Assembly: GCA_050084515.1 (NCBI GenBank)
Contig: CM114271.1
Coordinates: forward strand, 32,364,001-32,428,000
Source of the DNA: Blasia pusilla
Taxonomy: Eukaryota
DNA length: 64,000 nucleotides
Reading direction: 5' to 3'
Shown: positions 3,001 through 55,348 of the stretch, in pieces
Position numbering within the stretch: the stretch's first letter is position 1
Layout: the number at the start of each line of letters is the position of its first letter
The notes under the pieces: generated by a model
What the model was told of the DNA's origin: nothing
The model's database searches: none
Seen by the model: the letters and a program-made list of their open reading frames with translations, nothing else
Position numbers and translations under genes: made by a program

Positions 3001-3142
3001 TCTCCACTTCCCTTTCGCGCTCCTCGATCTCTTGCTGCCTTATCTCATTGGCCGAACGAGGCCTTGGAGATGGTGATGCAGGAGTCCTGGACTTGGGAGT
3101 GAAGCTCCCAGCCTTGCTTGCTTGAGTTTTTTTCCTCGTCAT
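1..3142 (-). pseudogene. 5' part (exons 1-2) of ParB/Srx-like + DNA methyltransferase gene, copy A
   Basis: ATG at 3142; exon 1 to 1972; GTAAG donor 1971; AG acceptor 1563-1562; motif FI*DGNHRFMAW at ~2095-2130; stops and frameshifts; homologous to copy B. Confidence 0.65.
1610..1940. repeat. ~64-bp tandem units, each carrying the 29-bp palindrome, inside intron 1
   Basis: Units start near 1695, 1759 and 1823 (CCGACGAGTTGCTTTCGGCCAAAAACATCCTAAAA...GCAACTCGTCGAACT). Confidence 0.85.
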
Positions 3143-3180
3143 TGTTCCCGAAAATGCCACCTCCTCGACAATGAAATTAC

Positions 3181-3280
3181 CTCGATGAGTTGCCTCGATG
3201 AGTCGCTCGAATCGTCTAGCGATGAGTCGCCTCGATGAATCACCTTGATGAGTCGCTCGAATCGTCTAGCGATGAGTCGC
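3181..3280. repeat. Two tandem 50-bp units built from GATGAGTCGC submotifs
   Basis: 3181-3230 and 3231-3280 are near-identical; absent from the homologous position of copy B. Confidence 0.85.
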
Positions 3281-3459
3281 CGTGTAAAGCGCCCCTTGGT
3301 ATCTAGTCCGCTGAAGAGCAATCAAGATCGCGAAACGAAAAACCTAAAATGAGCAAACCCTAGCCTATTTATACTTTTCGAGCCGTTGGGCTGACCGTTG
3401 TGTCGCACAGTCGTTCCGACGGCGACGTGTCGGCCGTTATGGAGGTTTGGACGTGAAAA

Positions 3460-4020
3460 CCATCAACCCAAAAGTCTCCGATGGGTTGGAGGCATCCGTC
3501 CTAGCCGAGATATCTGGCAACCTGTCGGAGTCCGACATGTTGCGCACCTCCGCTGTCTTGGGGGAAGAACGCGAGATACCCGCGCAACCCGTCGATGACC
3601 GACGGCTTGCACCCTTCCCTTGTCTTGGGATAACAAGGCGGGGTACCTGCGCAACTCGTCGAAGGCCGACGGGTTGCACAATTTCTTCATGTAAGCGTTC
3701 CAAGGCGAGGCACTTGCGCAACCCGTCAAAGGCCGACGGGTTGCACGCTTCCCTCATCTTGGGGTAATAGGCGGGGTACCTGCGCAACTCGTCGAAGGCC
3801 GACGGGTTGCACGCTTCCTTCATGTAAGCATTACAAGGCGAGGCACTTGCGCAACCTGTCGGAGGCCAACGGGTTGCACACTTCCCTCATCTTGGGGTAA
3901 TAGGCAAGGTACCTAGGCAACTCGTTCGTTACAGACAGGTTGCACTCCTTTCTATCCCTAGGGTAACAATGTGACAACGGATAGTTTCGAGGCAACCTCT
4001 TGCAATCCGACGGGTCACAA
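3460..4020. repeat. Tandem array of ~66-bp units with palindrome GCAACCCGTCGGA-N-(T/G)CCGACGGGTTGC
   Basis: Palindromes at about 3517, 3583, 3651, 3717, 3783, 3851, 3917 and 3992. Confidence 0.9.
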
Positions 4021-4954
4021 GATCTACCCTGAGTTGGACAATCCCATAATAGTCCCCAACGATTAGTTACCTTAGCAAATGTGTCAGATATGTCAAAGAT
4101 TTTCACATATCAAAATAGTCCTATCCTCAAAGCCAACAGTCATGTGAGGCTTTGTCCTTCTTTTCTTGGGGGACCTTTTGGCCTCAATAAGGTATTTAAC
4201 ATTATCAGTAAGCTCGTGCGATTCTTGATGATACCCTGCACAAGCCATAGAAGTAATTAGATCATGACGTGTAAATGATAAAAATAGATCATAATCTAGA
4301 GTGCCCTAATGAAATCTAATTGGAGTTATATAAGAAAATGAACTTACTTTTCAAAGTTGATGGCTTCTCTACAAGTGCATCATTATATGACACATTGGAC
4401 GTTGTTTCTTTTCCACTTTGAGCCGATTTAGAGACCATGCGCATGAGTACATTCATTTTCAATTTGGGATCTCATATCATGTAGAACTTCATCCAATTTG
4501 CTCTCCACCTCATTCATGTGGGAAGTGACATCTAATTCAACTCCCTATCAAACATAGTAGATAATTATCATAAGATGACAATACTTTCTCTTCCAAATTT
4601 CCTGATTTTTCCTTTCTATCCATGACTACTACACTAATTTATTTTGAAACTTGTGTGTTACCCGTGATGCCCAACTAAAATCTGTACTGGTGGGGTGTAA
4701 TAATATTACCTCCTCTCTTGTTGTACCATGAACAAAATTGTATCTTTTTGGAACCCCCTAAAATACAATAAGTCGGTGGCCTCGTTTTGGGTTGGGCCTA
4801 TGGAGGACGCGGTGAAGGGAGATGTGTGTGATTGAATTGTGGTGTCATAATTCAAATAAGAAACAAGTACAAATTTCATATGTAAGCTGATGGGAACGCC
4901 TAAATTTTGAGAGGAGAAGAACCCAACAATTTTAAGCTACGTTTTTACAACTAA

Positions 4955-7228
4955 AAGCTAGGTCACATGTCAGGTTAAGGGCTTACTGACAACACGTGTG
5001 AGCCTAATCGGTCGTCGTAGTTCAAAGTCTAGATATGTGAGCGGGCCTTCGTCATTTGCTTGGCCAATAGTGTTTTTGGATGTGGTGAGTAAAGGTTAAT
5101 GAGCACGTTATCCACGTTTATGGTAAACCAACTTGGTGCCACACGAGGTATTATGGAGGGCGTACGTACGTGAGAGTGGAGCGCCCCTCCCATTTTTTGG
5201 TGGATTCTAATCTAGACCCTAGCCATCAATCACATGCAGTGAGGTAGAATGATCGACCACCATTAATTGTGGTCAATAGAATAGGTAGGCCGTGGGCAAC
5301 CTTTCCCATTTTTTTAAGTTTTCCCGCTTCCTATTCGTATAAGGAGGCCAGTCCTGCTTGGTATAGGATGACAAGGCGGAGCGGTTGATGGAGCCCAATT
5401 AAAAAAAAATGCAAGGTCGATGAGCAAGATCGAGCGAGCGATGGGGTTTCCCACAAAAGTAACGGAAATACTGTCACTATTAGAGGCATTATAACGTCAT
5501 GTCTTAGGTCAGGCGATGGTCGTGAGTAGCGTGACATGGATTACCAACTTAGAAGTAGTTGAGAAACGTTGGATGAGGTTGTGGAAGGTCAAAATTATTG
5601 CTTGGGTAAGCCCCATCCCTATCGATCGGATTGAGGATCGTTTGGGGCAAGACCCGAGGAGATTGGCACATCACAAGTGATTGGGAGAGATACCCTTAGA
5701 CTTCTTGGGATATTTTGCAGGTATGCTAAGAGATGGCAATGTCGTGCAAATCCACATCGTCATACAACATACATCGCTGACATACCATATTCACATACAT
5801 ACATAACATAGACGAGAGTAATCACAAACACACCACAACTGAAATCCATGGAAGACCTACTGTCATAAAACACGTATAGAATCACATACAATCGAGCCAA
5901 ACCCACTCCACGATGGGAGAATCTAGGTCGAAGCTTGCGGGAAACACCATAGCCAAGGGCTCTACTCACTACCAAGGCTAACTCCCAACGCAACAGGCTC
6001 AACTCAAAGAACTGACTGTTCTTTGAGTGCACTCCACCTTATATCCTCCAACCTAAGAGCGGGCCCTACTGGGAAAGTCACCCCCAACTCAGTAACCCCC
6101 AACCCTATATATGAAACCGCATCTCTACCAAGCCACTACGGTCCTACATAAGGAATGGCCTCTACTAGCACACTATACTCTACGACATAATCCGTATGGT
6201 CATGACAGCAACCATAACATTGAGCGCTAGCGTGGTGAAAGGCCCTGCACACCAAGGAGCTAGATGAGATTTGCAGTTGGTTGTAGGGCAATAGTCGGGT
6301 TCTATTGTTTGAGATGGGGTTGCACCATAGCAACCACAGATACTTGTGCCATAGAGTCCTACAAAAGTCATGATGGAGACTTGGGAGCCATGTATGGGCC
6401 CTAAGTTGATAGGAGGCCGAAGATCGACACCCGATACATGAGTTTCTTAGGAGTCATAGGAGCTACTTTGCATTTAGTATGTATGATTTGGGTACATTGA
6501 AGGGTCTAGGGATTCGCATTGGGGTTTTAAGAGATATGCTGATCTTTTGATGACTCGACAAGTACAGTGATATGGAAAGGGCTCTCATTAAGGGTAGGAG
6601 CCATGACTTGGTTGGATTAGGACTAGTGGAGATGTCATACGGAGAGTATGCATCTGCCACCATCATGCTTGCCAAGAAGGATGTGCATGCATATGACAAC
6701 TAGACAAATAGGCGAATTTATGGAGACTACTGACCTATCAATCGGCATACAAAGTTTGATAGGTATGCGCATGCTATGCTCACTCCTGAGGAGATCTTTG
6801 ATGCTATTAGGCATGCAAAGGTCTTTAGTTCTTTAGATCTTTGAGCCTGACACCGTAAGTTGCCTAGGAGATTGGAGGACAAGCATGAGAAGATATTTTG
6901 GGGCATTGATCCTCACGAAAAGGATTGTTTGTACCACTGGAGGTTCTTACCATTTGGGTTAAAGAGTGCTCTGACAGAGTTTTAGAGGATCATGGATAGG
7001 ATCTTGGTAGGTCTGGATTTTACGAGATATTTTATTGATGGTATCGTAGTCTTTAGCGCCACGGTCAATTGAGGAGCATGACTGATATTTGGAGGAGGTG
7101 TTACGATAATTGTAGTTACATGGACTGAAGCTATATCCACGCAAGTGCAAGTTCTTCTATGACCACATTGAGTACTTGGATCACACGATATATCCAAGTG
7201 GCCTTGGTGTTCAAAAGATGAAGATAGA
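4955..7228 (+). mobile_element. Decayed Gypsy-like fragment (C5-DNMT C-terminal part, then RT), split by a solo terminal repeat
   Basis: Nucleotide homology to 48445-50250; DNMT-region remnants (RLW.TNL, AMGFP, LGQAM); RT remnants (DYR-like, YFIDGI, GLGVQK). Confidence 0.8.
5740..6207 (-). mobile_element. Solo terminal repeat unit (A+B), 468 bp, with 4-bp TSD GCAA
   Basis: TGTCGTG...CATGACA; homologous to 10638-11107; GCAA at 5736-5739 and 6208-6211; flanks rejoin to match the uninterrupted sequence near 49275. Confidence 0.92.
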
Positions 7229-10049: not shown

Positions 10050-10637
10050 AGGTTCCTATACAAAAGGAATGTCCTGGGATACAAGTAGACGAGGATAAAA
10101 AATGTTGGGGAATTCGAGAGCCTTGGCCCTCCCCTAGGTACACCATAACGGTCCCATGTAACCTGATTTGAGTCCCACTGCCTTCCTCAGCACTAAATCT
10201 TGTACGCTCTGCAAGGTGACACCCATCCAGTATCAATATGTGCTCCGTCCTTGGAAACCAATAAATCCCTACTCCAAAACGCTTAAGTCAAGATGGGTCC
10301 TTTAGTTCTTTGAACTCACTCCTCATCGTCCGAGAGCTCTTCCAGAATTACTGTCGGCCTTGCCCTCCCGATTTTTAGAATTGTGGGAAGTGACGATGGT
10401 GTCACTATCCATGGTGGGTCTGGAACCGGAGCTCTCGGCTTTGGAGGAGAGTTGTATGCTCCCACTAGCCTGTCGTAATCTACCTTTGCCTCTTTGCAAA
10501 GGTCATAAAGTTCTTGCCTTCCCTCAAGGCAGAGAATGTTCCTGCCACTCTGCCAGGCGCCTCTGATACTCGCCCTTTGATAGGCCCACTAAGTCGAAGA
10601 CCAAGTCACCCGGCCTTGAACAGAGCTCGATGAGCAT
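10050..10637 (-). pseudogene. C-terminal part of beta-class N4C/N6A DNA methyltransferase domain (SAM-binding region); 3' limit approximate
   Basis: MLIELCSRPGDLVFDL...(frameshift)ASIRGAWQSGRNILCLEGRQELYDLCKE; continues the frame GGTEKSPALMQ from the other side of the retro insertion. Confidence 0.7.
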
Positions 10638-11213
10638 TGTCGTGCGAATCCCCATCGTCATATAACATACATCGCTGACATACCATACTCACATACATAC
10701 ATAACATAGACAAGAGTATCCACAAACGCAAGTGTACCACAACTGAAATCCGTGAAAGACCTACTGTCATAAAACACATTTACAATCACATACAATTGAG
10801 CCAAACCCACTCCACGATGGGAGAATCTAGGTCGAAGCTTGCGGGAAACACCATAGCCAAGAGCTCTACTCACTACCAAGGCTAACTCCCAACGCAACAG
10901 GCTCAACTCAAAGAATATTGTTCTTTGAGGGCAAGCCACCTTATATCCTCCAACCTAAGAGCGGGCCCTACTGGGAAAGTCATCCCCAAGTGAGTAACCC
11001 CCAACCCTATGTATGGAACCGCATCTCTACCAAGCCACTACGGTCCTACATAAGGAATGGCCTCTACCAGCACTATACTCTACGACATAATCCGTATGGT
11101 CATGACAGCTGTCGTGCAAATCCCCATCGTCATACAACATACATCGCTGACATACCATACTCACATACATACATAACATAGACGAGAGTATCCACAAAGG
11201 CAAGTGTACCACA
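10638..11213 (-). repeat. 3' terminal repeat block: A (10638-10741), B (10744-11107), GC, A (11110-11213)
   Basis: The two A copies are near-identical (~104 bp); B matches 19566-19917; junction CATGACA-GC-TGTCGTG. Confidence 0.92.
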
Positions 11214-11228
11214 ACTTGCCCCCCTAAC
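11214..11228 (-). promoter_or_regulatory. Polypurine tract
   Basis: Minus strand reads TTAGGGGGGCAAGT immediately before TGTGG, the start of the inner A unit. Confidence 0.65.
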
Positions 11229-11388: not shown

Positions 11389-12830
11389 CTAAGTACATCG
11401 AGGACAAACCCACCTTCTAGTAGGAACAACATCCAAACGTGGAGTCAAACACATCATGTGCCAACCCCTAGAACACCGATCACACACCAACATACGGGCT
11501 GCGTTACCAGCAGACCCACACAACATGCACCTCAAGCTAGCACGTATCATGGCTAAGCTTGGGTCAACAGTACCATCCACATTTGGAAGATGACATGGCG
11601 CACAATTACGCACATGGTCCTTCCAAACAACTCCATCACGACCCTCCAACATGAGAGCTCCAGAAGCTAACACCTCACGCACTCGTAAAATAGTGCGGCC
11701 TGCCGTCACATCCAACGTTGTCGGGGCAATCTGCTGCAAATAGACATAGTCCCCCACATGGAACCTACTAATCGATGGTCGATAACCTCCATCCCGAATG
11801 GTTGCATACCGCAACGTATCCCTGTGTTGAGCAATGGCAAGATTCTCAAAGGCTGTTGGCATAACTCTCCGAAAGAGCTCCGCCCGCTGAGAACACACCC
11901 TCATCCACATCTCTGGGTCATCAAGGTCCACCACCTCACTAGACTCCCGACAAATTCTTTGCTTGGCAAGTCCGGATCTCGCCGATAATGAGAAAATAAG
12001 GTGAGAAGGAAGCCAAGGATGCTTGGCGATCGAACCTATACCCCATGGCTAACCATGGCAACTCGAATATCCGGTCTCCAAGATGCCCTTCAGAGGCCAT
12101 ACTTGCGCGATGCCCTCTTCTTCACCGTCGAACCACACGCTCAGCCAAACCATCCGCCTCTGGATTATCTCGAGACGTGGTCCGATGATCAATCAACGCC
12201 TTGTCACACAAGATCTGAAACTCACCCTGAAACTCAGACCTGGTCGGTCAAGACTTCGGTGGTGCACCAAAATGACTAAGCACTCTATCCAGAAATGCAT
12301 ACGCCCGTTCCTCACTTGCCTTGTCCGTAATGCCACCAACTCAATCCACTTGGAGAAGTGCTCCACCATCACCAACACATATCGATGATGTCGCATCAAT
12401 GGTAACGGTCCCCAAAGTCCACACTCCAACGGTAACCCAACCCCATAATAGGCAAGGGGTGTAATTGTGGTGTAGGGGCATTAAATGATGCCCTCACCGG
12501 TCACAAACCATACAACGTGACACCAATCGCTGCACTTGAGTATGCATGCCACGCCACCAATATCGCCAAGGAGTAAGCTATACGACGCTTTACCCCAAAA
12601 TGTCCCAACTCCTCATGGGCATGTCGCACAATGCGCTCTCTGTGAGCCAAATGTGGCACTACTCGTACTCTACCATCCTCCCACATACGGAGAATATGTG
12701 TTCCCTCCAATCGATACCTCTTAGCACGTTGAAGAACACGGTCTCGCTCCTTGGCACTCACTATGCCTGGCACCCTACTGGTCCGTAGGAACTCCAACAC
12801 CAACGCATCATCATGAATATCACGCTAATC
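11389..12830 (-). pseudogene. DDE integrase with C-terminal PHD finger
   Basis: HAHEELGHFG Zn motif; GPLP...YVLVMVEHFSKWIE rve core; CMLC...LVCDRCSRGWHMMCLTP...WVCPRC is a C4HC3 PHD at ~11395-11535. Confidence 0.9.
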
Positions 12831-13049: not shown

Positions 13050-14380
13050 ATCAAGGTTGGCAACTCTGTGTCTATGTACCACTTGGAAGTCATACTCTGT
13101 AAGATAAGAGCCCACCGTGCAAGCTTCCTGTAAGCTTGTCCGACTCCATCAACCACTTGAGCGGTGGTGATCAGTAACAAGGGTAAACGTGTGCCAAACA
13201 AGTAACACCTAAAGTGTGCCACACCACACTCGCCAAGCACTCTCCCTCATATGAACTATAGCGCGACTCATTTGCATTATTCGAACGACTTGCATAGGCC
13301 ACCACAAACTCCATGTGCTCATCATCATGTTATGTCAACACCGCTCCAAGTCCCAACCTACTCCAATCGTGTGTAATCGAAATGGGCGCCTCGATAGGTC
13401 TCCTCAAGATAGGCGCCGCCACCAACTCGGGCCTTAAGCTCCCCAAAAGCTCTCTCCGATCATCTCCCAAAGTGCCACTCTTGATCTCATTTCAGCAATT
13501 GGTTCAAAGGCTTTGCCATAGCACTAAATCCCTTCACATACCTCCGATAGTAGTTCGCCAATCCCATGAATGCTCGAACTCTACTCACATCTACCGGACG
13601 CAGAATAAGTGCAATAGCCTCCACCTTTGCTTGCTAAACTCCCAAACCACCTGGATAGATCACATGACCCAAGTACTCAACATCCTCATGGAAGAACTTA
13701 CACTTTCCTGGATGCAAACATAGACCATGAGCTTTCAACCGCTCAAACACCATCTGCAAATGTATCTGATGCTCCTCCACCGTGTTACTGAACACCAAGA
13801 TATCATCAATGTAACACCGAACAAAATCCAACCCTGCTAGGATCCTGTCCTTGAAACTCGGCAGGTGCATTCTTCAACCCAAAGGGTAAGAATTTCCACT
13901 GGTACAAACAATCCTTGCCATGAGAGTTGACACCCCAAAATGTTGTCTTGGCCTTGTCACTCTCCCGAATCGGCAATTGATGGTATCTTGCCCGAAGATC
14001 CAAAGTACTGAAAATATTTGCCTGTCCCACCACATCAAAGATCTCCTCAGGTGTAGGCATGGCATACCTATCGGCCTTGGTTTGCCGATTGATAGGACGG
14101 TAATCTCCACACATCCACCTATCCGTGTAGTTGCCGTGCATATCCTTTTAGCGAGCATGACAAAGGTGGGCGATGCATACTCTCCATGCGACAACTCCAC
14201 TAATCCGGCCTCCAAAAGGTCCAACGCCCTACTCTGAATCAGGTCCCTCTCCATATCACTATATCGGTAGGGACGACGGAAGATTGGCGTATCACTAGCC
14301 AAATCAATCCGTATACCGGGTCCAACCAGAGAACCCAACTCCTTCATGCTAAAGGCAAAACAACTCCTATAAGCACGTAG
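13050..14380 (-). pseudogene. Reverse transcriptase + RNase H (Gypsy-type)
   Basis: RMCGDYRPIN, FSTLDL..YHQL, LPFGLKNAP, CYIDDIL, KCKFF..VEYLGH; RNase H HFRCYL, KLARWALILQ. Confidence 0.95.
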
Positions 14381-14749
14381 GAACTGTGTCAGCGTCGTTT
14401 CTCACCTCCCGTAAGCTTGGGCCCAAGTAATGGCTCCCAAGTCTCCTCCTTTGGCATACTAGAGGGAGAGGCGATGCCATTGGTCGCTACGCAACCCCCT
14501 CACAAGATGATACACCCTTAGCTACACCATCATCCGAGCAAATAACTCCTCCACCAAAGCATGAGCTACCAACTCCACATGCCCAACCATTACATCCCAT
14601 TTACTCCAAGGATGCAAAATACTACTCTCCTCGCCCCTTTGACCGATGCCTCTATCGCCCGGTAGCCATCGAGCTCATTACAAGGGGTGGAAGACCCATG
14701 ACATAGTCCGAAATCGACGCTCGCCACCCATACCAAGACTCAAAATCCA

Positions 14750-15700
14750 AGTCAAACAATTCAGGTCCATGGCTGACCCAACACATGACGTCGTGAAGCC
14801 TCAAAAATAGAAGCAACGGCATTTGTCACACCGAAGAGCAAATCCCATCGACGCTCTCTCTCATCGGTGTTAGGCTCCACCAACCGCCGCGACATGAGAA
14901 TCCCATACAAGCCCCGGACCACCTTCCCTGTAGGCATGTGACGCTGGAAAACTCACAAATGTGGGTAGTGCCATCCTAGGTCGGCCCACACGGTTCACCA
15001 CGCCATGGGTGACCGATCAATAACCCTCACCACTTGAGAAAGTCGCCCAAGATTCAAGATACTATCCTTTGTAAGGTGAGGATCCGGCCTGCACCTTTGC
15101 ATCATATGCTCGACGTAGAACCTCCCTAGGCAACAAGTTTGTCCACCACAAGCGTGGGCGATGTGCACGCTGAGCCAACTCATGTTGCATCCAACAATAC
15201 CGCTGGTCCAATCCAAGACCGCACTCATGAACACTCGCCATCATCCGGGTCCGAGTGTCACCCAACAATGGAACATTCTCGAATGTAAGCTAGAGCACGT
15301 GTGCGATGAACTGAAGATGTCGTAACACCCGTAACATCTCCCAAAACAATCGAGACCTAGGGTCATGTAATCCCTCACCACGACCAAAGACGTGTATGAC
15401 CCCGACATGGCCATCCAAAGCAATCACCAAATCCACAGGACCAACCCTCTCAAGGTCCTGCGCCCCCAACAATGCAATGTGTGATGGTAAAGCACGCTGG
15501 TACCCACGAATAGCGATGGCGGCAACAACTCGGATATCTCGCATCAATCGACCAATATGTCGGGATGAGACTCTCTGGGCCGTCTCATCTCGCTCCACAT
15601 ACACGTATCTCCGACAGAATACCGCCCTGCAACATCGCCGCCAAACCGGTGCTAATCCCACCAAAGAGATTTAACACACAAATGCCCTCCGGGGATCTTG
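14750..15700 (-). pseudogene. C5 cytosine DNA methyltransferase domain within pol
   Basis: Motif I VLNLFGGI; motif IV VDLVIA-GWPC.GH; SRLFWE; motif VI ENV; motif VIII RAHRPRLWWTNL; motif X RHVLGQAMD. Confidence 0.9.
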
Positions 15701-18460: not shown

Positions 18461-19553
18461 CCACTCCATGTGAAACCACCACTGTCCGCACCACGGTCCC
18501 CAACCAGACCACCCGACAGCTCCGTGATGACCAACGCCGATGCCGCACCACCACCAAATTACCAAGTAACGTCGATGTCGCTATACTATTCTAGCTCTAC
18601 TAGCTATGGGTGTAGGCAACCTAACTTGTCATCACCACAAGAAGTCTCCCACAATCTACTCGTCATCCCTCCAGCCTCACTACCGGTAGCACACAGGAGT
18701 AACACTACTCTGGAAATCAACGTCAACCCTAACAATGGGCGCGCAAGCAAGAAGCACGATGGAGGGGATCCAAACAGAGGAAATCCAACGACAACCCTCC
18801 AATCGCAAATGGAAATCAAGGTAACACAATCCACCAAACGTGGTGCCCTCTGAATCCACAAAACCCACCACACAATTCTAACGCAATAGCTACTCCGCCG
18901 CGGGTCGATGACGTGCTAGTCGAACGCGCAGCACCTAAAAATATCACCTGCATGGCGAGGCTACACCGTACTATGCGCTAGAGGTACATCAACCAAAAAC
19001 TTGAGATGCATAAAGCGCCTAACACATCTCCGAACAGCACCAAATGAGCTACAACAGTCTGTACACTAGCATAGTTAAGAACTCGGCGATTAAGCGTCCT
19101 CCGAGAATAGCCCAAAGATGGGTGACCAGTTATGCAAAACTCAAATCCCAAATCCTGCAAAAATTGCCTCACGCCCAAGCAAGCAAGCTTGCTTGCTTGC
19201 TCCTTGCTCCTTACTCCGCCTCTCACGCCCACTCGCCCCGAGTTGCCTCGAAGCCTCTCACCCGATCTGGATGAACTTCAACACAGCTTCCGCACTCCAA
19301 GCTCTCCACATCAGAAAACCGTCGAACACGAACCAGAATCTTCAATCCTTGATAACTTCCAACTCCCTTGACGAAAACCGGCGATCTAAAGCGCATTGGA
19401 AAGCTCTCAGCAAGGCGCTTCTTTCCCAACCAATCGCGCACCAGATTCACACCTCCAACATAGGCCACAAGCCACGAACATCCACGGCTGAGTACACAAT
19501 CAGCCCTAACAAGATCCTACTGATCTACAATCGAAGCTACCATCGATCTACTC

Positions 19554-19565
19554 CAGTTCTTTGAG
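19554..19565 (-). promoter_or_regulatory. Putative self-priming primer-binding site
   Basis: Minus strand CTCAAAGAACTG directly follows the ...TTTCA end of repeat B and is complementary to minus-strand CAGTTCTTTGAG (19740-19729), which starts 29 nt downstream of TATAA (19769-19765). Confidence 0.75.
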
Positions 19566-19917
19566 TGAAATCCGTGAAGGACCTACTGTCATAAAACACG
19601 TTTACAATCACATACAATTGAGCCAAACCCACTCCACGATGGGAGAATCTAGGTCGAAGCTTGCGGGAAACACCATAGCCAAGAGCTCTACTCACTACCA
19701 AGGCTAACTCCCAACGCAACAGGCTCAACTCAAAGAACTGACTGTTCTTTGAGGGCAAGCCACCTTATATCCCAACCCTACTGGGAAAGTCACCCCCAAG
19801 TGAGTAACCCCCAACCCTATGTATGGAACCGCATCTCTACCAAGCCACTACGGTCCTACATAAGGAATGGCCTCTACCAGCACTATACTCTACGACATAA
19901 TCCGTATGGTCATGACA
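19566..19917 (-). repeat. 5' terminal repeat B (TG...CA, contains TATA box)
   Basis: Matches 10744-11107 apart from a short deletion; no A unit at this end. Confidence 0.92.
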
Positions 19918-20274
19918 GCATTTGCATCAAGGCAGGGGACTTTTCCGTTCCTCCAAGTAAGGGGGTCCTGTCTTGCATGTAAATTCCCGGGGGAATTGTA
20001 TAAACTATCTAAGTTGTACCCATCAAAGCATGGATTGATTGGATCTAGGATCTCGAACACTTGGAAGTTGTGCTCGGGCCTTACAAAATAGTAGACAAAG
20101 GAGTGGTCCATCTGTAAAGAAGCAGGTTGGAAACAATGTCAGAAAAAAGAAAGAGCTACTTGACCGTTGGTCTACTCTCAATATGGTGACACAATGTGCA
20201 ACATGTCCATAGTGCATTCTAGTCCTTGTTGATTACCAACTCATAAGAACTTGGCCTATAGTCCTAACAGTAGA

Positions 20275-20615: not shown

Positions 20616-22719
20616 GGATTAAGAGCACTTACCCGGACTTGACTCATCGCCAATCGGAGTGGATACTCGTTCTTGATGACCCATGATTGCACTGTCCTCC
20701 ACTTCAACGACCTCTTCACGCATTGAAGGTTGAAGAGCTTGTCCTTGGTCCCTCCAGTCAAGACCAAGAAACAACCCTGTCACTCAGATAAGCGTCTGCA
20801 AAAGAAAACAAGAGCGCGATCTGGTCGTAGGAAAGAGGGACAGTGCAGTCTAGGACAGTGTCAGATGGATTGTTGTCCCACAAGCGAAACCCAAAGGGCA
20901 AATTTTGTGATGAGGAGATCCACCGCCACCTCCTCGACCACCCCATGGACCGTCGAGAGAGCATGCACATTTCGTTGAAGGTTTTGTCCCAGCATGGTCA
21001 ATTTGTCGATGGCGAGTGTCGACTCCTGGGAACTAAAACTTTGCAGCTCATCCACAAGATGAGTGAAGTGAATGAGGATATTTGTCCTAGTCGTTTTTTC
21101 TCTATGCCTTCCCAAGGATGATGGAGTGTATTCCATATCCTTATCTCCTCCCTAGGACAAACCAAACGCCTCCCGCTTTCGCTTCTCCCGAGTCTATGGT
21201 CGGCCTATGGGGGTATCTGTTACCTCAGACTCCATTGGAGTTTTCTTGGCGGAGGATCTGGTCTGGCCCTCTCGCCCCGCTTGCTCGGACGATTCCACCT
21301 CTCGCCTTGAGGTATCAGCCTCTTTTTTGGAAGAATCGACCTCAAAATTCTTCGCTCCCCTCGCCTTTGCTTTCAAACCCGCTATAGATTTGTTCTTGGT
21401 GGTGACGACCTTGGACACCAACTCCACTGTCTTGAGGGCTTGCTCCTCCGCATCTCCTTCAAAAAATCTTTAGGATGCATAAAATTTGGAATGTCGTCCC
21501 TACCTGCGACCACTGCATCATAGACCAGACATAGATTTTTTTCGGTTATGTCCTTAGAGTCGTTGAAGTCCAACCAGATTGGGCGATTGTCAACCTCCCA
21601 ATCGGACATGCCCTATGCCATCTCCATGTCGTACATAGATAATGCCTCTCCATCAGGCGGAGAAGCCCACAATTTGCGGGCTGCCGGTATGTTTCGCCAA
21701 GCACCTGCATTCTTACAATTGATGAGGTACCTGTACACCATCCGTCGGGCTGCTCTTTGTCAAGATGAATTGGCCGCCTGCTCCTGAAGATCCCGCTTCT
21801 TCTTTGCGAAATCCCTTTTTTTGGCGTCAATTTCTTCATCCAGGTCTGCCTAAGGGAGGATGTGATTCTTGAACATCATCCTGAAGCCTGGATTTTTCGT
21901 GGGCTTGTCTCGGATGCCATCAAGCCATAGTTTGAAATCTTCTGCAGTTTCTAGGTTTGGTTCCTCCGGAACTGGCTCAATCTTCTCCAGCTCTGCTTGA
22001 AGACCCATGAGCATGGACTTCCCGAGAAGCGGCAACGCATCCCAGAATGACCATTCACTTAGCCAATGGGAGATCATTGGATCAGAAACTCCCGGAGGAT
22101 GGTGTGCCGCCTGCTTTTGGGCCTCTGTGCCCTCCACACTGATTTTCATCAGTCAAATTCTCCTAAACTCAGAAATTCCAGACAGTGCAAATTTGTGAAC
22201 GCGGTCCATAGACACTTTCTCGCCGATCCAACCCTATAGATCTTCGTCTCTCTTCCGCTGACGCTTGGTTATCGCCTTGAGCTCCTTGTAGAATTCTGGG
22301 CCAAGTTAGGGGTTCAGAATGGCAATGTATCGCTGCATCTTGCTTGCAGTGTACTTCATAGCTGCAGATATTGCAGACTTGATAAACTTTGCACGTTCAG
22401 ACGCAGACATGTTCCCCCTTCGCTCCAATTCCAATGAAGCGCTCTTCTTGGCAGCCTGGATCTTCGACCAACAAAGGATTGTGACGACTGCATCTTAGGA
22501 AATGAAGGTATTTGCCCAAGTCTTCTTTTTAATTTGAGCCCCCTTCGCCAGCATCTCATTTACCACAGCGTCGCCCAAGAACCCCTTGTACTCTGTCGGG
22601 TCCGTCGTAAGCACCTTTTTCACCTTGTCACAATCCTAGATCCAATGGTGGGTGACATTCCCCTCGGATACAATCCTGTACATCCAAACACACGCTAAGA
22701 ATTATTGCAAGCTACTAGG

Positions 22720-23385
22720 TTCCTACAACCTGTCGGACTCTAACTGGTTGCAAGACCTGGTGGTCGAAATGGTGGCATAGAGAAAAATATTGCAATCCGT
22801 CAGAGTCCGATGGGTCGCAACACCTTTTTTCTGTTACACTTATTGCAACACTCAAGCAAATTTTGAGACATAATTGCAACCCATCAGAGTCCGAAGGATT
22901 GCACTCGGATTTTGTGATTTTCTAGTCCATCCGTTTTGGTCCTTGGCTACAACCCATCGGACTCCGACGAGTTGTAAAAAATAGCATATATCAACCCGTC
23001 GAAGTCCGACAGGTTGCGCAATTTGTTGTAAAGGTGGGATTGGACGCCTAAAAGCAAGCTCTCCTACTCCGACCACCTACCTATGGGGGCAAATGCAACC
23101 CGTCAAAGTCCGACGAGTTGCTTTCGGCCAAAAATCCCAAAAATAGCGGACAGTCCTATTTTTAGGCGTCCGATGATTTGTTACCACTAGTTTAACAACT
23201 CGTTGAAGTTTGACGGTTTGCAGAACATATAAATCATGCACTCATTTTTACACCCGTCGATGGTGGACTGGTTTTGGTATCCCAGCTTTCTCTAGTGTGC
23301 TTGGCCACCAGGCAACCCGTCGGACTCCGACGGTTTGCTTGAAGCTTTCCAATTATGCAACCCGTCTGACACCGACGGGTTGAAG
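22720..23385. repeat. Palindrome cluster in intron 1
   Basis: About nine copies, e.g. GCAACCCGTCGGACTCCGACGGTTTGC near 23312. Confidence 0.85.
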
Positions 23386-24904
23386 CAATCAAAATTAAGG
23401 AAGAGGAAACTTACCCATTCATGGCATGGATTGCCATTTCCACCGTTGCCATGTGATGAGGAAAATGCGCCTCCAATGAATTTGGGCGCTCCTATGTAAA
23501 CTGGGTCCACACCATGTACTTGTGGTTTCCATCCCAGATGAAGAAGTAAAGGTTCCGCATCCAGCTAAATTGCGTCCCCTCAATCGCTCTTCTGAACTCC
23601 TGATCTCTCATCCTCCAGAATGTATCGAGCGCTTCCAAGTCCTCTTCCGTCACTAGCGCTTGGGTTCCATGTTCATCGTAAGGCTGAACATAGAACGGAG
23701 AGAAGCTGTCGACGTAGGATGTTGTCACTGCCGACTATTTCAACTTTGTAATATCCTCCTCCGAATGAATTTTGCGGACGTACTCCATGGTCCGCAATCG
23801 GCAAAGTAGAATTCTCAGGGCGTTTTGGCCCTCCATCAGTGCCATCTGCTTAACAACTTGCCACAATGGGGACCAAGTCAATAAACTACACTGTTTTGCC
23901 AATGAATTGCATCATGGGCCTTCACATAACTCAAACGTTTCTTACCCGCTCAAAGATTGGGTCGGTGTCTTGGCCGACCAACTGCTTTGGGACAATAGCT
24001 GGCAAATCCACAAGAAACTCATCGATCCGATAAAGGTCGATTTCTTCGGCCGGGATCAAAGACGAGGAAGACTGTTCTCATGCTTCTTCAGAGATGTCCA
24101 CCATCTCCACGCTTGCCGTCCTCATGACTTCATCGTCCGTCACTTGAACTTCGGCCGTTTCCTCAGCCGATTTTATATTCATGGTGTCCCCACTTTTCAT
24201 CGGGGACATTTCCTACACCTCAACACTCTGTGTTGGACGGGCAGGGCTTTCTTCAATGGCAATCACTTTTTCCCTTTGAGCTTTTGCCAATTCTGCTCTC
24301 CTCACGGACGCGTCCAGACGCTTTTTCTCACGTTTCTCGTCGGCGACTTTTCTCTTCAAGGCCTACGATGCCTCAGCCTCGACGTTTTGTTTTTTTGAGT
24401 GCCACCAGAACACGTTTTGCAAGAAGCTCCTACCTGTGCATATGTGATTCCCTTTCGCGCTCCTCTATCTCTTGCTGCCTTATCTCATTGGCCGAACGAG
24501 GCCCTAGAGATGGTGACGCAGGAGTCCTCATGGACTTGGGAGTGATGCTCCCTACCTTGATTGCTTGCATTTTTTACCTCGTCATGGTTCCCATCAATGC
24601 TTCCTCCTCGACAGTCTAGTCTCTTTCTGTGCACGAAAATTCCCTCGAATGGTCTCGCGATGAATTTCCGTGACCCTGGACCCAACTCTCTTTGCGTTTT
24701 GTGATGAAGCGCCCTCACCCTCCTCACTTCCCTTGGTATCTAGTCAGCGGCTGCGCGGAAGAGCACATGAAATCGCGAAATGAAAAACAAAAATGAGCGA
24801 AACCTCGGCTATTTATACTTTTCGAGCCGTTGAGCTGACCGTTGGGTCGCACCGTTGTACCGACGGCGACGTGTCGGCCATTATGGAACTTTGGACGTGG
24901 GAAC

Positions 24905-25840
24905 CCAGCCAACCCGACGGTCTCCGACTGGTTGCACGCTTCTCGCGTCTTTGGGATGCAGGGCGAGTTGCCCAGGAAACTTGTCCGAGACCCATGGGTT
25001 GCACGCATCCGTCCTCCTCGGGTAACAAGCCGAGCTACCCTGGCAACCCGTCGGAGACCGACAGGTTGTACGCCTCCCCCGTCTTGGGGTAACAACGCGA
25101 GATACCCGCGCAACCGATTGGAGACAGGGGGATTGCATGCCTCCCTCGTCTTGGGGTAACAACGCGAGGTGCCTGCACAACCCGTCGGAGACCGGGAGTT
25201 TGCACGCTTCCCTCGTCTTGGGATAACAAGGCAAGGTACCCGCGCAACCTGTCGGAGGCCGACGGGTTGCACGCTTCCTTCATGTTGGCGTTACAAGGCG
25301 AGGTACCCGTGCAACCAGTCGGAGGTCGACGGGTTGCACGCTTCCCTCATCTTGGGGTTACAAGGAGAGGTACCTGGGCAACCCGTCGGATACCGATAAG
25401 TTGCACTCTTTTCTCTCCCTCGGGTAACAATGTGACAAAGCAGAGTTTTGAGGAAACCGGTTGCCCTCCGACGGGTTACAAGGTCTACCCGGAGTTGGAC
25501 ACTTCCCAACATACGGCAAAATTGCACTCATGGTTTGCACGGTTAATTGAATAAGAGAAATCGACCCGAGATGCAAAAGGGAAAGCAAGGTTAGGTACCT
25601 TTGGATCCCATAACAATCACCAACGGATTGCCGTAGCAAATCCATGCGATATCTTGTGTTTGATGCTAGCAATCTCGACTCAAATCACATTGGTCAGACA
25701 AGAAGGGGATACCAACCCAACGGACTCCGATAGGTTGCAACTCGCATTGGGGCACTAACAGAAAATGGAACTCCGAGCTTCGCAACCCACGTGTCCGAGT
25801 CCCAAATTCTGCAACCCATTGGACTCCAACAAGTTCCAAC
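24905..25840. repeat. Tandem palindrome array in the divergent promoter region
   Basis: ~67-bp spaced copies at about 25043, 25109, 25177, 25243, 25311 and 25378, plus 25712 and 25810. Confidence 0.88.
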
Positions 25841-28114: not shown

Positions 28115-29870
28115 GTGACTGCACCTCATTGATGGGGTCCTCATTGCCTCAGACAACGTGAAAGACTGAGGAAGCCTAGTCTATTTCCAGGCTTCCCCTC
28201 GTTGTGGATCCAACTCTACGGCTGCTCCACGCGTGACAACTGCGGCGGCCTCCATCTGGGCAACCTAGCACATCCAACCAGGATCCTCCATATCTCTGGC
28301 TGCTCCAATATGATGTCAATGCCACGGATCGGGCATTGGGTAACCTCAATGCCATAGCGGCAATCTGCTCCTGTAGATGTTGTATCTGAGTAGCCATCCT
28401 AGTCTCACGTCTGGCGTCTCCCTTGACACGGCTAGGTGGTGGGACTCTACCTCCTCCACGGGCAGCTCCACCACCATGTCGGGAAACTCCAGCTTCTCGT
28501 CCCCCAACGGAACCACTTGGTGCATGATCTCTAGGCCCACCCGGACCGGCTACTTGCTCTGGTGCCCTCTTTGGCCCTCGGTCCATACGTAACTCAAGAT
28601 ATAAATTGAAACACTTGGCGTATGTATGACCATACCTCTGACAATAGTCACAATGATAACCTCCTGGTGCAGCACCATCTCCTCCTCCATGTTGAGGCAC
28701 ACGTCCATAACCTTGACGAGTGCAATCATGCTGATGATGGGCTCCACCACATGACCAACAAGTAATAGTAGGCGGCTGCTACTGAGCCGCATATGAAGGC
28801 GCAGGTCTCTATGGCATGACCTCTCGATATCCTCCCTGAGCTCATGGTGCCACAGTCGACCTATCTCAGAGTCTTTGTTGTTGCACAGGTGGTGTAGACA
28901 ATCGTGACTGCTCTCGCCTAGAACCCATGGTGGCTATGCTCTCCTCCGCCATGTTGCTCTTAATGTTCTCGGCCGTCCTAAAAATATCTCTCAATGTAGG
29001 GGAGGTGTTCATAAGAAGCACCCCCTCCCGCACCCGTGTCCGTAGGGTCCGGTCTAGCATTGCATATCATGATTGGATAGCCTGAGCCTCTGTCACCCCC
29101 TGAGTGACGTTGATCAATCGGCGCAAGCAAGTATAAGCCTCACGCAAACTCTCACACGGGCGCCTCTAGAAGGCGTGGATGCTCCGCAACTTCTCTGTCT
29201 GTATCCCCTGGTAGCTCGCCCTCAACTCAGCAAAGAACTCAACCACGGGGTTGAACCTGGGACAAACCCGACTAGACGATGCAACTGCTCCAATGTGAGT
29301 GACCCCTCTTAAAAGACCACTAGTGAAGAGGAAGTAGCCTCTCTTGACTCCTTCTCCTCATCTGGGAACGTCTCCGTCCATGACACATAGTGTGGGTCAT
29401 AGTAGAGTCGCCATGCCTCAATCTCTGGGCATATCTGTGAGAGAACTCATGGTAATCATCCATGGGCACCCCCTCCAAATGCTGGAATATACCATTCCAT
29501 GTTGTAAACGGGTTAAACTCTCTAGAATTCCTAGCCTGCTGTGAGTCACACCAACTCCTAAACTCCGTAATGAACTCGTGTAGCTCTATAGTGCCTACAA
29601 CACTTGAAAACCTACGCGGTCCTCTACCCTGGTCCTCCATCTCGTACGCCCAACTGGTAGGACCACTCAATGTGTACGGTGGATCACTAACACACTCCTC
29701 TATACGCTCCCCCTCATCTGAAGATGACACAGAAGGAGATCGAGGTGGTCTCTCACGTGGAGACCCTCGAAACCTCGCACCACTCCGGGTAAACCCTCCA
29801 GAGCTACTCTCAAGTCCACTACCTCGCCTATCAAAATCCCAAAAGGACGCCGTGATGGCCCTCCTGGATG
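28115..29870 (-). mobile_element. gag remnant of a second-subfamily retroelement
   Basis: GTIELHEF..FRSWCD, FQHLEGVPMDDY, CDYCQRYGHTYAKC; homologous to 44900-46410. Confidence 0.85.
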
Positions 29871-31149: not shown

Positions 31150-34100
31150 ACTCTGACAAGGTGACCTTTTGATTCATGGGCTCAACGTTTTCGTCTTGCT
31201 TTGTGATGCTTTGAGAGTTTTAGCCGCTCGACGATGATCAAGTGTCGTACGGTGTGCCCATAATCGTATCACACCGCTAATTGCCGTGCCGTGCGGCTTG
31301 TGGCTACAACGCACCGTATTGATGGCGGAGCCGCACCATCATTGGAAGCAGAGGGTGTATTGCTATTGAGGAGGATATGCCGGTGAGTGTTGCATTCCAT
31401 TACCAAGTATCATTCTGTTTGTAGCCGTTCCATGCCGCTAATGCCGCACCGTATCGCTCGATCCACACCGCACATTGAGGAGATTTTAGTATCGTCTGTA
31501 TCAAAAGAGTACGACTTATTTCCTTGAGGAATTATCTTCACGACCAAGTTAGGGTCGAGATGCAGTTGTTGAAGAGCAACACAGACATTGTTCATGTTAC
31601 CAATTCTGGTCTTTTCCCCTATACGTGTGAAGGGAATTCCGAGTATTGGGGGATAGTGGGTTTCATCATTGATGTATGTGGTTCAAGGGACATAGATCGT
31701 GTAGGATATTCAAAGTTTAGGGTATATTCTATCGATGAGATAATAGAACAATAGTCAATTTGTCGCACCACGTGGCTTGTTGTCGTACAATACACGTCTT
31801 AGTGAAGTGAGAGGAGTGTAGATTGAGTGCCACATATATTTAGCTTGAGTGATTGAGGGATTACTCATGAGATTGAGAGTGATTGTATGAGAGGGGCAAA
31901 AGGGCCATCACGGCGTCTTTTTTGGGACTTTGAGAGGCAAGGTGGTGGACCAGAGAGTAGCTCTAGAGGTTTTACGCAGAATGGCGCGAGGTCTCGAGGG
32001 TCTCTATGTGAGGGAATACCTTGACCTTCTTCTGTGTCATCTCGATCCTTACTAGGCGCGAGAAACCAAAACTATCAACTAATAGATTAGAAGGGGAAAG
32101 AACTAGTGTGGGCATAGACAAGTTTATCAATGCAGCACCGCACATAGTGAGTGGTCATGCCGCCTAGGAGTACCGGGGTAGAGGACTGCGTAGGTTTTCG
32201 GGTGTTGTAGGTACGATAGAATTGCACTACTTCATTGTGGAAATTAGGAGTTGGTACGACTCGGAACAGGTTAGGAATTCTAGAGAGTTTAACTTGTTTA
32301 GAACATGGAATGGAATGTTCCAACACTTAGAAGGAGCATCCATGGACAATTAGTATGAGTTCTCCCAAAGGTATGCCCTTGAGATTGAGGCATGGAGACT
32401 CTACTATGACCCACACTATATGTCATGGACTGAGCCATGTCTAGACAAGGAAGAGGAACTAGGAGAGGCTACATCCTCTTCCACCAGTGATATGTTAGGA
32501 GGGATAACTCAAACTGGAGCAATTGCAACGTCGAGTAGGATTTATCCTAGGTTCAACCCCGTGGTTGAGTTCTTTGTGGAATTATGGACGAACTACCAAG
32601 GGAAAAGGACTGAGAAGTTACGAAGCATCCATGACTTCCATAGGAGCATGGGTGAGAGTTTATTTGAGGCCTTCACTCGCTTGCGTCGGTTGATTAGCAT
32701 TACTCAAGGGATGACACAATCCTAGGCTTTCGAAGCATGGTACGCGATGCTGGACCAAGACCTGCGGAAATAGGTGAGGGATGCGATCTTGCTTATACGC
32801 ACCTCACCTACATTTAGAGATGTTTTTGAGATCAGACGCTGATTGACCACTGCACCACTTTGCGAGATAATGTTGAGGCGGATGGACTAGCGAAGAGGGT
32901 TGTGCAGATGGTGAAGAGAGGTTTATGCAAGTATGGCTTGTAGGGAGGTCACTTGGGAGATTGGGACCTCTAATTGCTATGGTTGGCGATGGAATACAGA
33001 TTCAGCAAGTAAGCCTCTTAGCATCTTTCTCACCATATTTGTTGCTTTATGGTCGAGAGCCAGATTTAACTATGGCCATTCATTGAGATGTTGATGTGTG
33101 GATGTGAGCATGTTCTAAGAGGATTGAGTTGTTTCGGAGAGTGATGCCCATGGAGTTTGAGAACTTGGCGATTGCGCAACATCGAGATACGTTCAGGTAT
33201 GCGACTATTCAGGGAGGTGATTATCGACCTACTATCCGGAGGTTTCATCAGGAAGACTATGCCTACTTGTAGCAGACGATATCCACGATGTTGGATGTGA
33301 CTTTAGGGCGCACCATCTTGAAAGTGCATGAGGTTTTGCCATTTGGTGTCCTCTTATTGGAGGGGCATGATGGTATGGTTTGGAAGGATCATGTGCGTAA
33401 TTGTGCGTCATGTAACCTTCCTAACATTGACGGTACAGTTGATTTGAGCTTAGCAGTAGTTCAAGTAGGCTTGCGAAGTATGTTGTGTGGTTTCCCTCGT
33501 GGTGCAGCAACTATGCTAGACTGTGATGGATGTTTGAGAGATTGACATATGGCATGTTTGACGCCACCTCTTACTAGGGTTCCTCGGGGACGATGGGTGT
33601 GCCCAAGATATATATAGAGTAGGTAGTTATAGATTTTGACTTGTGTCTGTGATATGGATGACAATTAAGAAGACAACTAACGATAGGGCCACATGAGCAC
33701 CCGACCTTTTTGCTCTTAGCGTCCTAGAGATGTATGTCATGGTAGGTAGGGACAGATGGATATCTGGAGTTAGAGTGACCTAACCACCTATTAGGAGGAA
33801 GATTGGAGATATTTTGGTGCTTCTCGTCTCATTGTGTGGATTCCATAAGTTAGCATGGGATCGTGTGTGATTGTACATAGGTTCAGTGACAACAATATAT
33901 GTTATGTAGCTATGAGTATGCGCAAGACAACTATCACGTATTTTAGGATATATCAAGGAGATCTAGTAGGAAGCCTTTGCAAGTAGTGGAGGACAACCTC
34001 ATAAGGTCGAGGATGACTTGTTGAGGCCATGGGTAACCTAAGAGAGCAGGTTTTCTCTTCGTTTCGGCTCATTTGGAGCCATATAAAGAAACTTACTATT

Positions 34101-47000: not shown

Positions 47001-47090
47001 TCCTTGGGTGGAGCGAGTACCATTTAATTTATCATCCGATAGGAAGTCGTGGTGAGGATTCGCCCAGGACATCCTTTAGATGAGTCACAC

Positions 47091-47660
47091 TATAACTCAT
47101 CTAGGACTTCCTCCATCTTTCTCATGTTGGGCCTTAAGAGCACCTCTCTTGCATGTTTGTGTATGTGTGTAGGAACTAGGGTGCTAGCGTTTAGGGATTC
47201 CATCATAGCTGAGGATGGATGTGGCTCGATATGCCAATGTAGATTCAGGAGTGGAGTCAAGTGATCTTTTTATTTATGGAGTCCAATTTTTCTATCTACT
47301 TTACTATGTTTTGAGGTGGTACCCTCTAGATGACGATCAAATACCATATCGTGACGCCCGTAGCCGCAACGCGCCGTTGATTGCCGCTCATGCCGCTCGT
47401 CGCCGCACCTGCAGCCCTATTGTCTTGAACACTGTTGCTTCCTCTCCAACTCCGATCGCAGTCGCAGTCAACTAAGATACCATGATTCCGTCCTTGTCTG
47501 TCCATTGACCCAGTTCTATCCACAAGCCTTCCGTCATCAGTCGCCATTGCTGAGTGGACGGTCCAGAGTGATGATTGTTGCATTTGTGATTGTGCCACCA
47601 CCACCTATGCGTTTGGCCGCCGCTGACATATTTTCATCATCGATCATCGCGCACGGGATG
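47091..47660. other. ~570-bp insertion interrupting the protease region
   Basis: Reading breaks after RPGHPLDESH and resumes at RAKAIVTDTEFYDVLV; 47270-47375 duplicates 44196-44300. Confidence 0.65.
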
Positions 47661-48159
47661 TAGACGAGCCAAGGCGATTGTGACCGATACAGAGTTCTAC
47701 GATGTCTTGGTTGATGGAGCAATGTTATACCCGATAGGGTTTTCCCAAGATTACAAGGAGGAGTCAACATCCTAAAAATCAGGATGGTCGTCCGATCATG
47801 GACGACTTTGTTCACTATCCGTTTGATTCACACATGAAGTGATCCAACGACGGCCAAGAGAGATGGCGAAATTAGCAGCATGTAGCAGCGCCATCACGTG
47901 GCCTTCTGATTTGATTGAGGGGCATGTCCATGCAGAGGACACCCCCACACCTGACACTTCTAGGGAGGAGTGTTATGGTAGCCCCATCATTCCATGGAGG
48001 AGAGGTGACGTTGTGGGGCTCGAGTGAGGAGCTCTGACGTTTATTCGATGAGCATGTGCAGACGGCGTGGAGTCAAGCGTTTGCACCAAAGCGTGATGGG
48101 TCAAAGGAACCAGAGGTAGCCCATAGTGCTACTATGACCCCTTTGAACCCCACCCCGAT

Positions 48160-55000: not shown

Positions 55001-55348
55001 CCATCATCTCCAGTCGAGAAATGGGTTGTCCTTAGCCAGTGCCATATTTTATTGTAGGCAACGGGTCTCCATAGCTTTGCAGCGCGCCTAGGCAAATGGG
55101 CTTCTGCGGCGGGCTCAAGCGGTTGGAGACGCCAATGCTAGAGGCCCACTTAGTAGTAGTCATAGTTTTCTAGGTGTTGCTGATATTGTCTCTGCTGTTG
55201 GTGATTTTGGTCGTTAGGGGGGAAGGCCCCCTTCTTTCTCCTCGGGGCGGTTCCGGCCTCTTGAGGCCTATTTTGTGGATCTCCATGCCCTCTCTTTTGT
55301 ATCGTGATGGGTTTCCCATCCTTTTTCTACATATATATATTTTATTCA
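52091..55348 (+). mobile_element. CRE-clade non-LTR retrotransposon (Zn finger-RT-restriction-like endonuclease), mildly decayed
   Basis: C2H2 finger; IHPIAIGE, QFGVA, DVENAFNS, GTRQGDPLG, LANDT, ILGVPLG; CAC..HLARC, HDAVRD, AD..DV..K, FIPLAIEMYG; stops at 52307 and 55089, frameshift near 53645; AT-rich 3' tail; 5' UTR limit unknown. Confidence 0.88.

Follow-up and report, generated by a model that had tools for sequence, protein, structure and literature searches.

In the retrotransposon Tf1, the first ~11 nt of the RNA are complementary to a site directly 3′ of the 5′ repeat, and a cut made by RNase H lets this RNA end act as the primer. Retrotransposons of the DIRS order, in turn, encode a tyrosine recombinase and are not known to leave a target duplication.

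According to excerpts of PMC6317226, self-priming is established for the Tf1/sushi group and predicted for the plant lineages Tcn1 and TAR. Excerpts of PMC7192593 give the split-repeat order of PAT-like and Ngaro elements as A1-internal-B1-A2-B2 and state that the primer of DIRS-1 is unknown. KnitGypsy-Dnmt3, described from Klebsormidium nitens by de Mendoza et al. (2018), is a gypsy polyprotein with a Dnmt3-like domain. Its repeats are described as 'the same as that of a DIRS retrotransposon', and the scheme that the same authors draw for Symbiodinium DIRS elements is A-coding-B-A-B (excerpts of PMC5890265). The excerpted main text of PMC5890265 names neither a primer site nor a polypurine tract for KnitGypsy-Dnmt3, and neither a target duplication nor a scheme of replication. 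That article was also the single literature match for KnitGypsy, while the matches listed for split direct repeats combined with an integrase dealt, by title, with tyrosine recombinases or general topics.

Here we describe a pairing between the predicted start of a transcript (P*) and a putative primer-binding site (P). It is located in the 5′ leader of a retrotransposon of the Ty3/gypsy type that is decayed, measures 9280 bp and lies on the minus strand (19917-10638) of the window, the whole 64-kb stretch of DNA analysed. The features discussed below are collected in Table 1.

Table 1. Features of the retrotransposon and of related sequences, in window coordinates
Feature	Position	Strand	Basis
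Target-site duplication, upstream copy, ATGC	19918-19921	-	same 4 nt at 10634-10637; single copy in empty-site contigs
A1, first copy of repeat A, 352 nt, TGTCATG...GGATTTCA; contains TATA box, hairpin and predicted RNA start	19566-19917	-	repeat comparison
TATAAG box	19764-19769	-	sequence reading
Hairpin, CTCAAAGAAC (19753-19744)-AGTCA-GTTCTTTGAG (19738-19729); 3′ arm is the predicted RNA 5′ end	19729-19753	-	sequence reading
P*, predicted first 13 nt of the transcript, CAGTTCTTTGAGT, proposed self-primer	19728-19740	-	complementarity
P, putative primer-binding site, ACTCAAAGAACTG, overlapping the last base of A1	19554-19566	-	perfect complement of P*
DNMT-like region, decayed	14684-15658	-	tblastn with DNMT-bearing relatives
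Reverse transcriptase, two frames, decayed	13637-14147	-	Pfam RVT_1, E 3.2e-09 and 1.6e-15
RNase H fragment	13174-13329	-	Pfam RT_RNaseH, E 8.6e-06
Integrase: zinc-binding part, core, C-terminal part, PHD finger at the end	11392-12824	-	tblastn, relatives with Integrase_H2C2 and rve
Polypurine tract, AGGGGGGCAA, immediately 5′ of B1	11216-11225	-	sequence reading
B1, first copy of repeat B, 106 nt, GTTGTGG...CACGACA	11110-11215	-	96% identical to B2
Two-base spacer GC within the palindrome GACA-GC-TGTC, from B1 end to A2 start	11108-11109	-	sequence reading
A2, second copy of repeat A, 364 nt	10744-11107	-	repeat comparison
B2, second copy of repeat B, right end of the element, ...CACGACA	10638-10743	-	repeat comparison
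Target-site duplication, downstream copy, ATGC (minus strand)	10634-10637	-	matches 19918-19921
Solo A+B unit of the same family, TTGC at 6208-6211 and 5736-5739; A1-type hairpin kept	5740-6207	-	repeat comparison
tRNA-Glu (TTC)	60525-60597	+	ARAGORN; sole tRNA gene in the window and all loci

Coding remnants of the element

The internal part of the element is decayed, with stops in every frame. Pfam and tblastn together recovered the domain order of Ty3/gypsy elements (RVT_1, RT_RNaseH, Integrase_H2C2, rve), and Ty3 was the closest solved structure (E 2e-94). The best named protein relatives belong to Marchantia polymorpha (82%) and Calypogeia fissa (76%), which makes a liverwort the probable host. 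A search of viral contigs found no relatives.

By tblastn, the DNMT-like region (15658-14684) was linked to the DNMT parts of three proteins, P0070, P0034 and P0057, with E values from 8e-15 to 4e-10. All three carry PF00145. In P0070, which comes from Klebsormidium nitens, this domain lies at residues 312-369, and the match to the element covers residues 306-579 (E 7.8e-15). Pfam gave no match on the window's own fragments of the region (15658-14684). The DNMT-like part precedes the reverse transcriptase in the window element and in the K. nitens protein; in P0034 and P0057 it follows RNase H and precedes the integrase. Since its position differs in this way among PHD-bearing relatives, the domain appears to have moved or to have been acquired twice within the group.

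The PHD finger at the end of the integrase was recognized by Pfam on 11392-12048 (PF00628, E 8.5e-11). The same module (PF00628) is C-terminal in the relatives listed, in which Pfam detected no chromodomain. In one of them, P0016, the C-terminal PHD finger (residues 1019-1070) has the PHD of ATXR5 as its best solved match (E 2.6e-13). This resemblance hints that targeting may rely on reading of histone tails, replacing the chromodomain.

Split repeats and target-site duplications

Along the minus strand the units of the element follow the order A1-P-internal-PPT-B1-NN-A2-B2, with an internal part of ~8.3 kb. Two equal LTRs are absent: the left end consists of A only and the right end of B-NN-A-B. 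The repeat next to the pairing site, named repeat B in the first-pass annotation, is actually the A1 unit of a split direct repeat and not a standard LTR. A1 is 94.6% identical to A2 (10744-11107) and 91.6% identical to the solo copy (5840-6207). Relative to A1, A2 carries an insertion 5′ of the TATA box, as well as a 2-nt gap and a base change in the hairpin loop.

The empty site is present in contigs from two runs (X2 and X3), in which one copy of the 4 nt links both flanks (with a loose end at 19917). The insertion thus extends exactly from A1 to B2 and duplicated 4 bp of its target. Depth across A in these two runs is several-fold above that of the leader. In run X1, 24,304 contigs match positions 19300-20100 at a likeness of at least 85%, which makes the family very abundant in that sample.

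Relatives were collected with an integrase-PHD alignment, which yielded 80 loci from metagenome contigs at a protein identity of 43-85%. Self-comparison revealed the order A-coding-B-A-B, seen in the window element, with all four units in 8 full-length elements (the one in the window and loci L019, L035, L045, L054, L061, L064 and L077). An arrangement of B-A-B after the integrase was found in 28 of the 80 loci, and L067 is a further case.

The ends of the element are conserved as TGTCA...TGACA, and at the inner joint B again ends with TGACA and A starts with TGTCA. This B1-NN-A2 joint forms a near-palindrome, GACA-NN-TGTC, with a spacer that is always 2 nt long and varies in its letters (GC, GC, GC, AA, AA, AC, AC and GT across the 8 elements), whereas the 5-7 nt on either side of it are fixed. 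The spacer of the window, GC (11108-11109), is replaced by GT in a contig from run X11.

Clear 4-bp duplications (ATGC, TTGC, AAGG, CATA, TTTG and CCAA) surround 6 out of 9 insertions carrying A2-B2, that is, the 8 full-length elements and the solo A+B unit of the window. Four further minimal copies, without A2-B2, are flanked by ACTA, TACA, TGTG and CCAA. All 8 full elements have a G-run directly 5′ of B1, as do 17 of 20 further loci, the exceptions being L005, L044 and L049, with a degraded tract.

The window contains other repetitive material as well. A second element family, ~73% identical, is represented by fragments at 44186-50911, 31310-33442, 28123-29866 and 5060-7200, the last of which is interrupted by the solo A+B unit (5740-6207). 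No terminal repeats of these fragments were found. Two long open frames of 454 and 567 aa at 52310-55091 on the plus strand, the first of which matches RVT_1 (E 1.6e-11), probably represent another, less decayed retroelement. Additionally, tandem arrays with a 67-nt period and short inverted repeats inside lie at 3517-3900 and 24900-25500, within a duplicated segment of ~4 kb (1-4046 and 21113-25508, 79-83% identical).

The predicted RNA start is complementary to the border of repeat A

It had been proposed in the first-pass annotation that the 12 nt following the repeat are an exact complement of the sequence 29 nt downstream of the TATA box. We found the complement to be present and slightly longer. 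After ...GGATTTCA, the end of A1 at 19566, come the letters CTCAAAGAACTG (19565-19554); their complement, CAGTTCTTTGAG, lies at 19740-19729. With the final A of the repeat (19566) and the T in position 19728 included, the match comes to 13 nt. P* starts 29 nt past the first T of the TATAAG box (19769-19764), and the hairpin suggested for the predicted start was found there too (19753-19729).

The complementarity is not a product of chance. When A1 was shuffled 2000 times, a 13-nt complement to the 30 nt spanning its border never arose, and inverted matches of at least 11 nt within 80-450 nt occur, over the whole 64 kb, almost exclusively in tandem-repeat arrays. In the minimum-energy fold of the predicted leader (19740-19530), the first 13 nt are paired with P as the closing stem (z -2.6, with 1 of 200 shuffles as good). 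No Rfam family matched 19300-20000.

The solo copy (5840-6207) retains the A1 version of the site. In A2 the corresponding letters are CTCAAAGAACAATATTCTTTGAG, with which the pairing would span only 9-10 nt. Among the variants listed for contigs of 4 public runs, none with a share of at least 5% falls within P or P*; one such variant is listed in the hairpin loop (19742).

Judging from the spacing of the TATA box, the first base of the transcript would be the start of P*. The one possible RNA contig, from run X11 (19471-19751), extends 11 nt upstream of this predicted start, which counts against it.

Covariation among related elements

To compare the leaders, we defined 5′ ends as repeat A followed by sequence other than B. 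There are 18 of them, one in the window (E1) and 17 in metagenome loci, and all these copies are decayed. In 17 of the 18, the best 16-nt duplex of the site just past A is formed with A positions 159-178. A TATA-like motif was recognized in 14 of the 18 ends, 21-31 nt upstream of this 16-nt segment, in a varying register.

The pairing occurs in three classes that use unrelated letters at an equivalent place in the repeat; A, B and P sequences cannot be aligned across classes. The pair is CAGTTCTTTGAGT / ACTCAAAGAACTG in class 1, ACTTTTGGTGATT / AATCACCAAAAGT in class 2 (L045, L046 and L075) and AGTTTTTCTAGAATT / AATTCTAGAAAAACT in class 3 (L061 and L064, with 13 nt in L073). Within class 1, both sides have changed in L019 and the pairing is lengthened to 17 nt. 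The compensatory change across subfamilies that the earlier reading had named as a check is therefore positive, with three classes pairing through unrelated letters.

The longest perfect complement measures 12-17 nt in 9 of the 18 ends, 9-10 nt in 4 and at most 8 nt in 5. For class 1 the lengths are 13 nt in E1, 17 in L019, 12 in L005, 10 in L012 and L032 and 9 in L004. All three class 2 ends (L045, L046 and L075) have 13 nt, and in class 3 we counted 15 nt in L061 and L064, 13 in L073 and 10 in L054. The five ends with at most 8 nt (L007, L035, L041, L077 and L079) are assumed to be decayed copies.

Shuffled sequences hardly ever reached the observed lengths (0 of 2000 for E1, L019, L061 and L064, and 1 of 2000 for L045). 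As a control, each site was also paired across classes. The best 14-nt duplex had a mean of 12.3 pairs with its own A, 12.0 with A of the same class and 9.8 (maximum 11) with A of another class, so that the margin is modest, 2-3 pairs in 14. In the leader folds of L045, L046 and L061, the closing stem is again formed between the 5′ end and P, with z values of -5.0, -3.8 and -4.4, respectively; no equally good fold arose in 200 shuffles.

In classes 1 and 3, P* lies in a hairpin or palindrome (a 10-bp hairpin in the former, TTCTAGAA in the latter), the upstream arm of which precedes the predicted RNA start. L019 has a 9-bp version of the hairpin, and AAATCAC-TTTTG-GTGATTT was read by eye as the class 2 counterpart.

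Since three classes keep the pairing with unrelated letters and the leaders fold accordingly, self-priming of the Tf1 type is supported. We hold it to be very probable that the P/P* pairing is functional, and we consider it likely that it primes minus-strand synthesis from the element's own RNA end. The same proposal in the first-pass annotation thus gains from the 13-nt pairing, the covariation and the folds, with a start that is still predicted from the TATA spacing.

The comparison of classes also bears on two other explanations. P shares 10 nt with the upstream arm of the hairpin (CTCAAAGAAC) and could be a stray, functionless copy of that arm produced by a rearrangement. We find this scarcely credible, as covariation across classes already contradicts it: classes 2 and 3 keep the pairing with letters unrelated to those of class 1. 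Moreover, the family is abundant in run X1, yet no P or P* variant with a share of at least 5% is among those listed.

The second explanation invokes a tRNA. A TGG-type primer-binding site had been reported as absent, which is correct only in part: a TGG does occur at 19556-19554/3, 10-11 nt past A1, and it is its distance that is not kept in relatives. If a tRNA primed at this TGG (TGGAGTAGATCG), the complementarity between the repeat and P would be incidental, and a similar motif, TGGGAGTAG or TGGGAATAG, can be found 18-21 nt after A in L019 and L035. However, the distance from the repeat varies among copies (10, 18 and 21 nt), the letters past the TGG are out of register, and neither class 2 nor class 3 has a conserved TGG, or any TGG, within 25-30 nt after A. 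The one tRNA available for comparison, tRNA-Glu, does not match the P site, a comparison too narrow to carry weight. A tRNA site would also leave unexplained why repeat A ends 10 nt upstream of it. Altogether, priming by a tRNA seems very improbable.

Repeat borders and the proposed route of replication

The duplex coincides with the 3′ edge of repeat A, as a primer-binding site would, and in every full element the switch from A2 to B2 falls within 0-3 nt of the start of the P duplex. B1 starts directly after the G-run, so the borders of A and B coincide with the two proposed priming sites. The A/P border and the G-run/B1 border are the required starts of minus- and plus-strand DNA, respectively.

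By analogy with Tf1, the following order of events can be proposed. Transcription would start ~29 nt past the TATA box in A1, giving an RNA that begins with CAGUUCUUUGAGU. The 5′ end of this RNA would then fold back over ~160 nt onto P, the 13 nt at the border between A1 and the internal part. As in Tf1, the RNase H of the element would cut after about nucleotide 12-13, and the 3′-OH freed on the RNA 5′ fragment may prime minus-strand DNA. The plus strand would be primed from the G-run polypurine tract, repeat B beginning exactly after it.

It should be stressed that pairing and covariation indicate that the duplex matters, not what its role is. The duplex might be a conserved RNA structure of the leader serving packaging, dimerisation, translation control or protection of the 5′ end, with priming done by something else. 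P* lies in a hairpin or palindrome in classes 1 and 3, and by eye in class 2, and could serve contacts between RNA molecules; the replication scheme, moreover, is incomplete. Nonetheless, we judge such a role in place of priming to be unlikely. In three classes that cannot be aligned, the 3′ border of repeat A, where minus-strand synthesis must begin, is exactly where the duplex lies, and near the A border there is no other conserved complementarity and no conserved TGG site. A further argument comes from locus L008, which preserves the DNA end of the form A+P.

At this locus (L008:3361-3878), a copy of P comes after A2 and continues into A positions 180 to 1 in reverse complement, the last letters before the flank being ...GGTCATGACA (...CATGACA). 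This is as expected if the locus were the fossil of a snap-back, in which a plus strand ending in A+P folded onto its own P*. It is a single case, and the inverted start of A looks like it acted as the right integrase end.

Priming by the RNA's own end does not by itself account for the split repeats. A self-primer and a polypurine tract at these positions predict an LTR of the form B-NN-A and not the integrated order A...B-NN-A-B, which leaves the replication scheme incomplete. In the sense of reverse transcription, the LTR could be B-NN-A, with the integrase ends TGTCA...TGACA lying inside it, although this reading is weakly inferred. Within an element, A1 and A2, like B1 and B2, are 85-96% alike. 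Given that the classes cannot be aligned with each other, such likeness suggests that both copies are renewed from one template in each cycle. The A2-B2 joint, where the U5 end stands beside the U3 start, varies by 1-3 nt between copies and is probably remade every cycle.

Several routes to the integrated form were considered. If a 2-LTR circle were cut randomly at one or the other of its inner sites, copies that read A-B-NN-A-P... would be expected, but B precedes none of the 18 5′ ends, which makes simple cutting of such a circle unlikely. Copies of the form A...B only were found at ~31 loci. They were rejected as the primary product in view of L073 and L077, which represent one insertion in the forms A...B and A...B-GT-A-B, respectively; their flanks are 96% identical over 253 and 410 nt and 97% identical over a further 8.5 kb. 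Thus, at least at one site, the minimal copy is best read as a B1xB2 deletion. We also looked for complementarity of B with A, with the leader and with the preceding tract. None of at least 9 nt is conserved, and near the A border no other conserved complementarity was found, so the B end or another priming site was dropped from consideration.

Our best guess at the route is a more-than-unit-length linear cDNA, which may arise by an end-to-end template jump and be cut by integrase at the inner sites. We tentatively propose, as one possible account and not the most probable outcome, that the split-repeat layout is here the footprint of ordinary LTR-type reverse transcription. P would set the end of A and the polypurine tract the start of B, while the integration sites TGACA-NN-TGTCA would lie inside U3. 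The integrated copy would then be a permuted, more-than-unit-length cDNA, with the A2-B2 joint made by a template jump or by ligation before integrase cuts.

Discussion

Self-priming, as supported for the window element, is a mechanism that is already known, probably at work here in an unusual family, where it helps to account for the split repeats. As it is a textbook feature of Tf1 and has been predicted for two plant lineages, the element described here would be another instance of it. What adds value is the setting, a gypsy family that carries DNMT and PHD parts and whose repeats are split in the DIRS manner. For this family we can now point to a clear, if putative, primer site, a clear polypurine tract and integrase-type ends with 4-bp duplications. 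Its known range is extended from a charophyte alga to liverwort-like genomes and many metagenome contigs.

The borders of A and B coincide with the two priming sites, which offers a testable handle on the replication of split-repeat retroelements. If the account given above is true, this family provides an explanation of a layout, that of split direct repeats, which has so far lacked one even in DIRS, PAT and Ngaro elements.

The mechanism of Tf1/sushi elements, proposed in the first-pass annotation, probably applies here; the element as a whole, a point missed there, is not of the plain LTR type and does not evidently belong to the Tf1/sushi clade. As in Tf1/sushi, the predicted RNA start (13 nt) is complementary to a site right after the 5′ repeat, and reverse transcriptase, RNase H and integrase are of the Ty3/gypsy type, which the element shares with Ty3 as well. 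Unlike Tf1/sushi, it has a DNMT-like domain, a PHD finger takes the place of the chromodomain, and the repeats are split (A-int-B-A-B) and do not form two equal LTRs. The duplex is also longer in this family, 13-17 bp versus 11, and the integrase ends would lie inside the reverse-transcription LTR.

With elements of the DIRS order, such as PAT-like and Ngaro, the window element shares the arrangement A1-internal-B1-A2-B2 and an inner B1-A2 joint equal to the joined ends of the element. Its family differs from them in having a DDE integrase and 4-bp duplications. With KnitGypsy-Dnmt3 it has in common the split A-coding-B-A-B repeats, and its DNMT-like part, matched by tblastn, lies upstream of the reverse transcriptase as in the K. 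nitens protein P0070.
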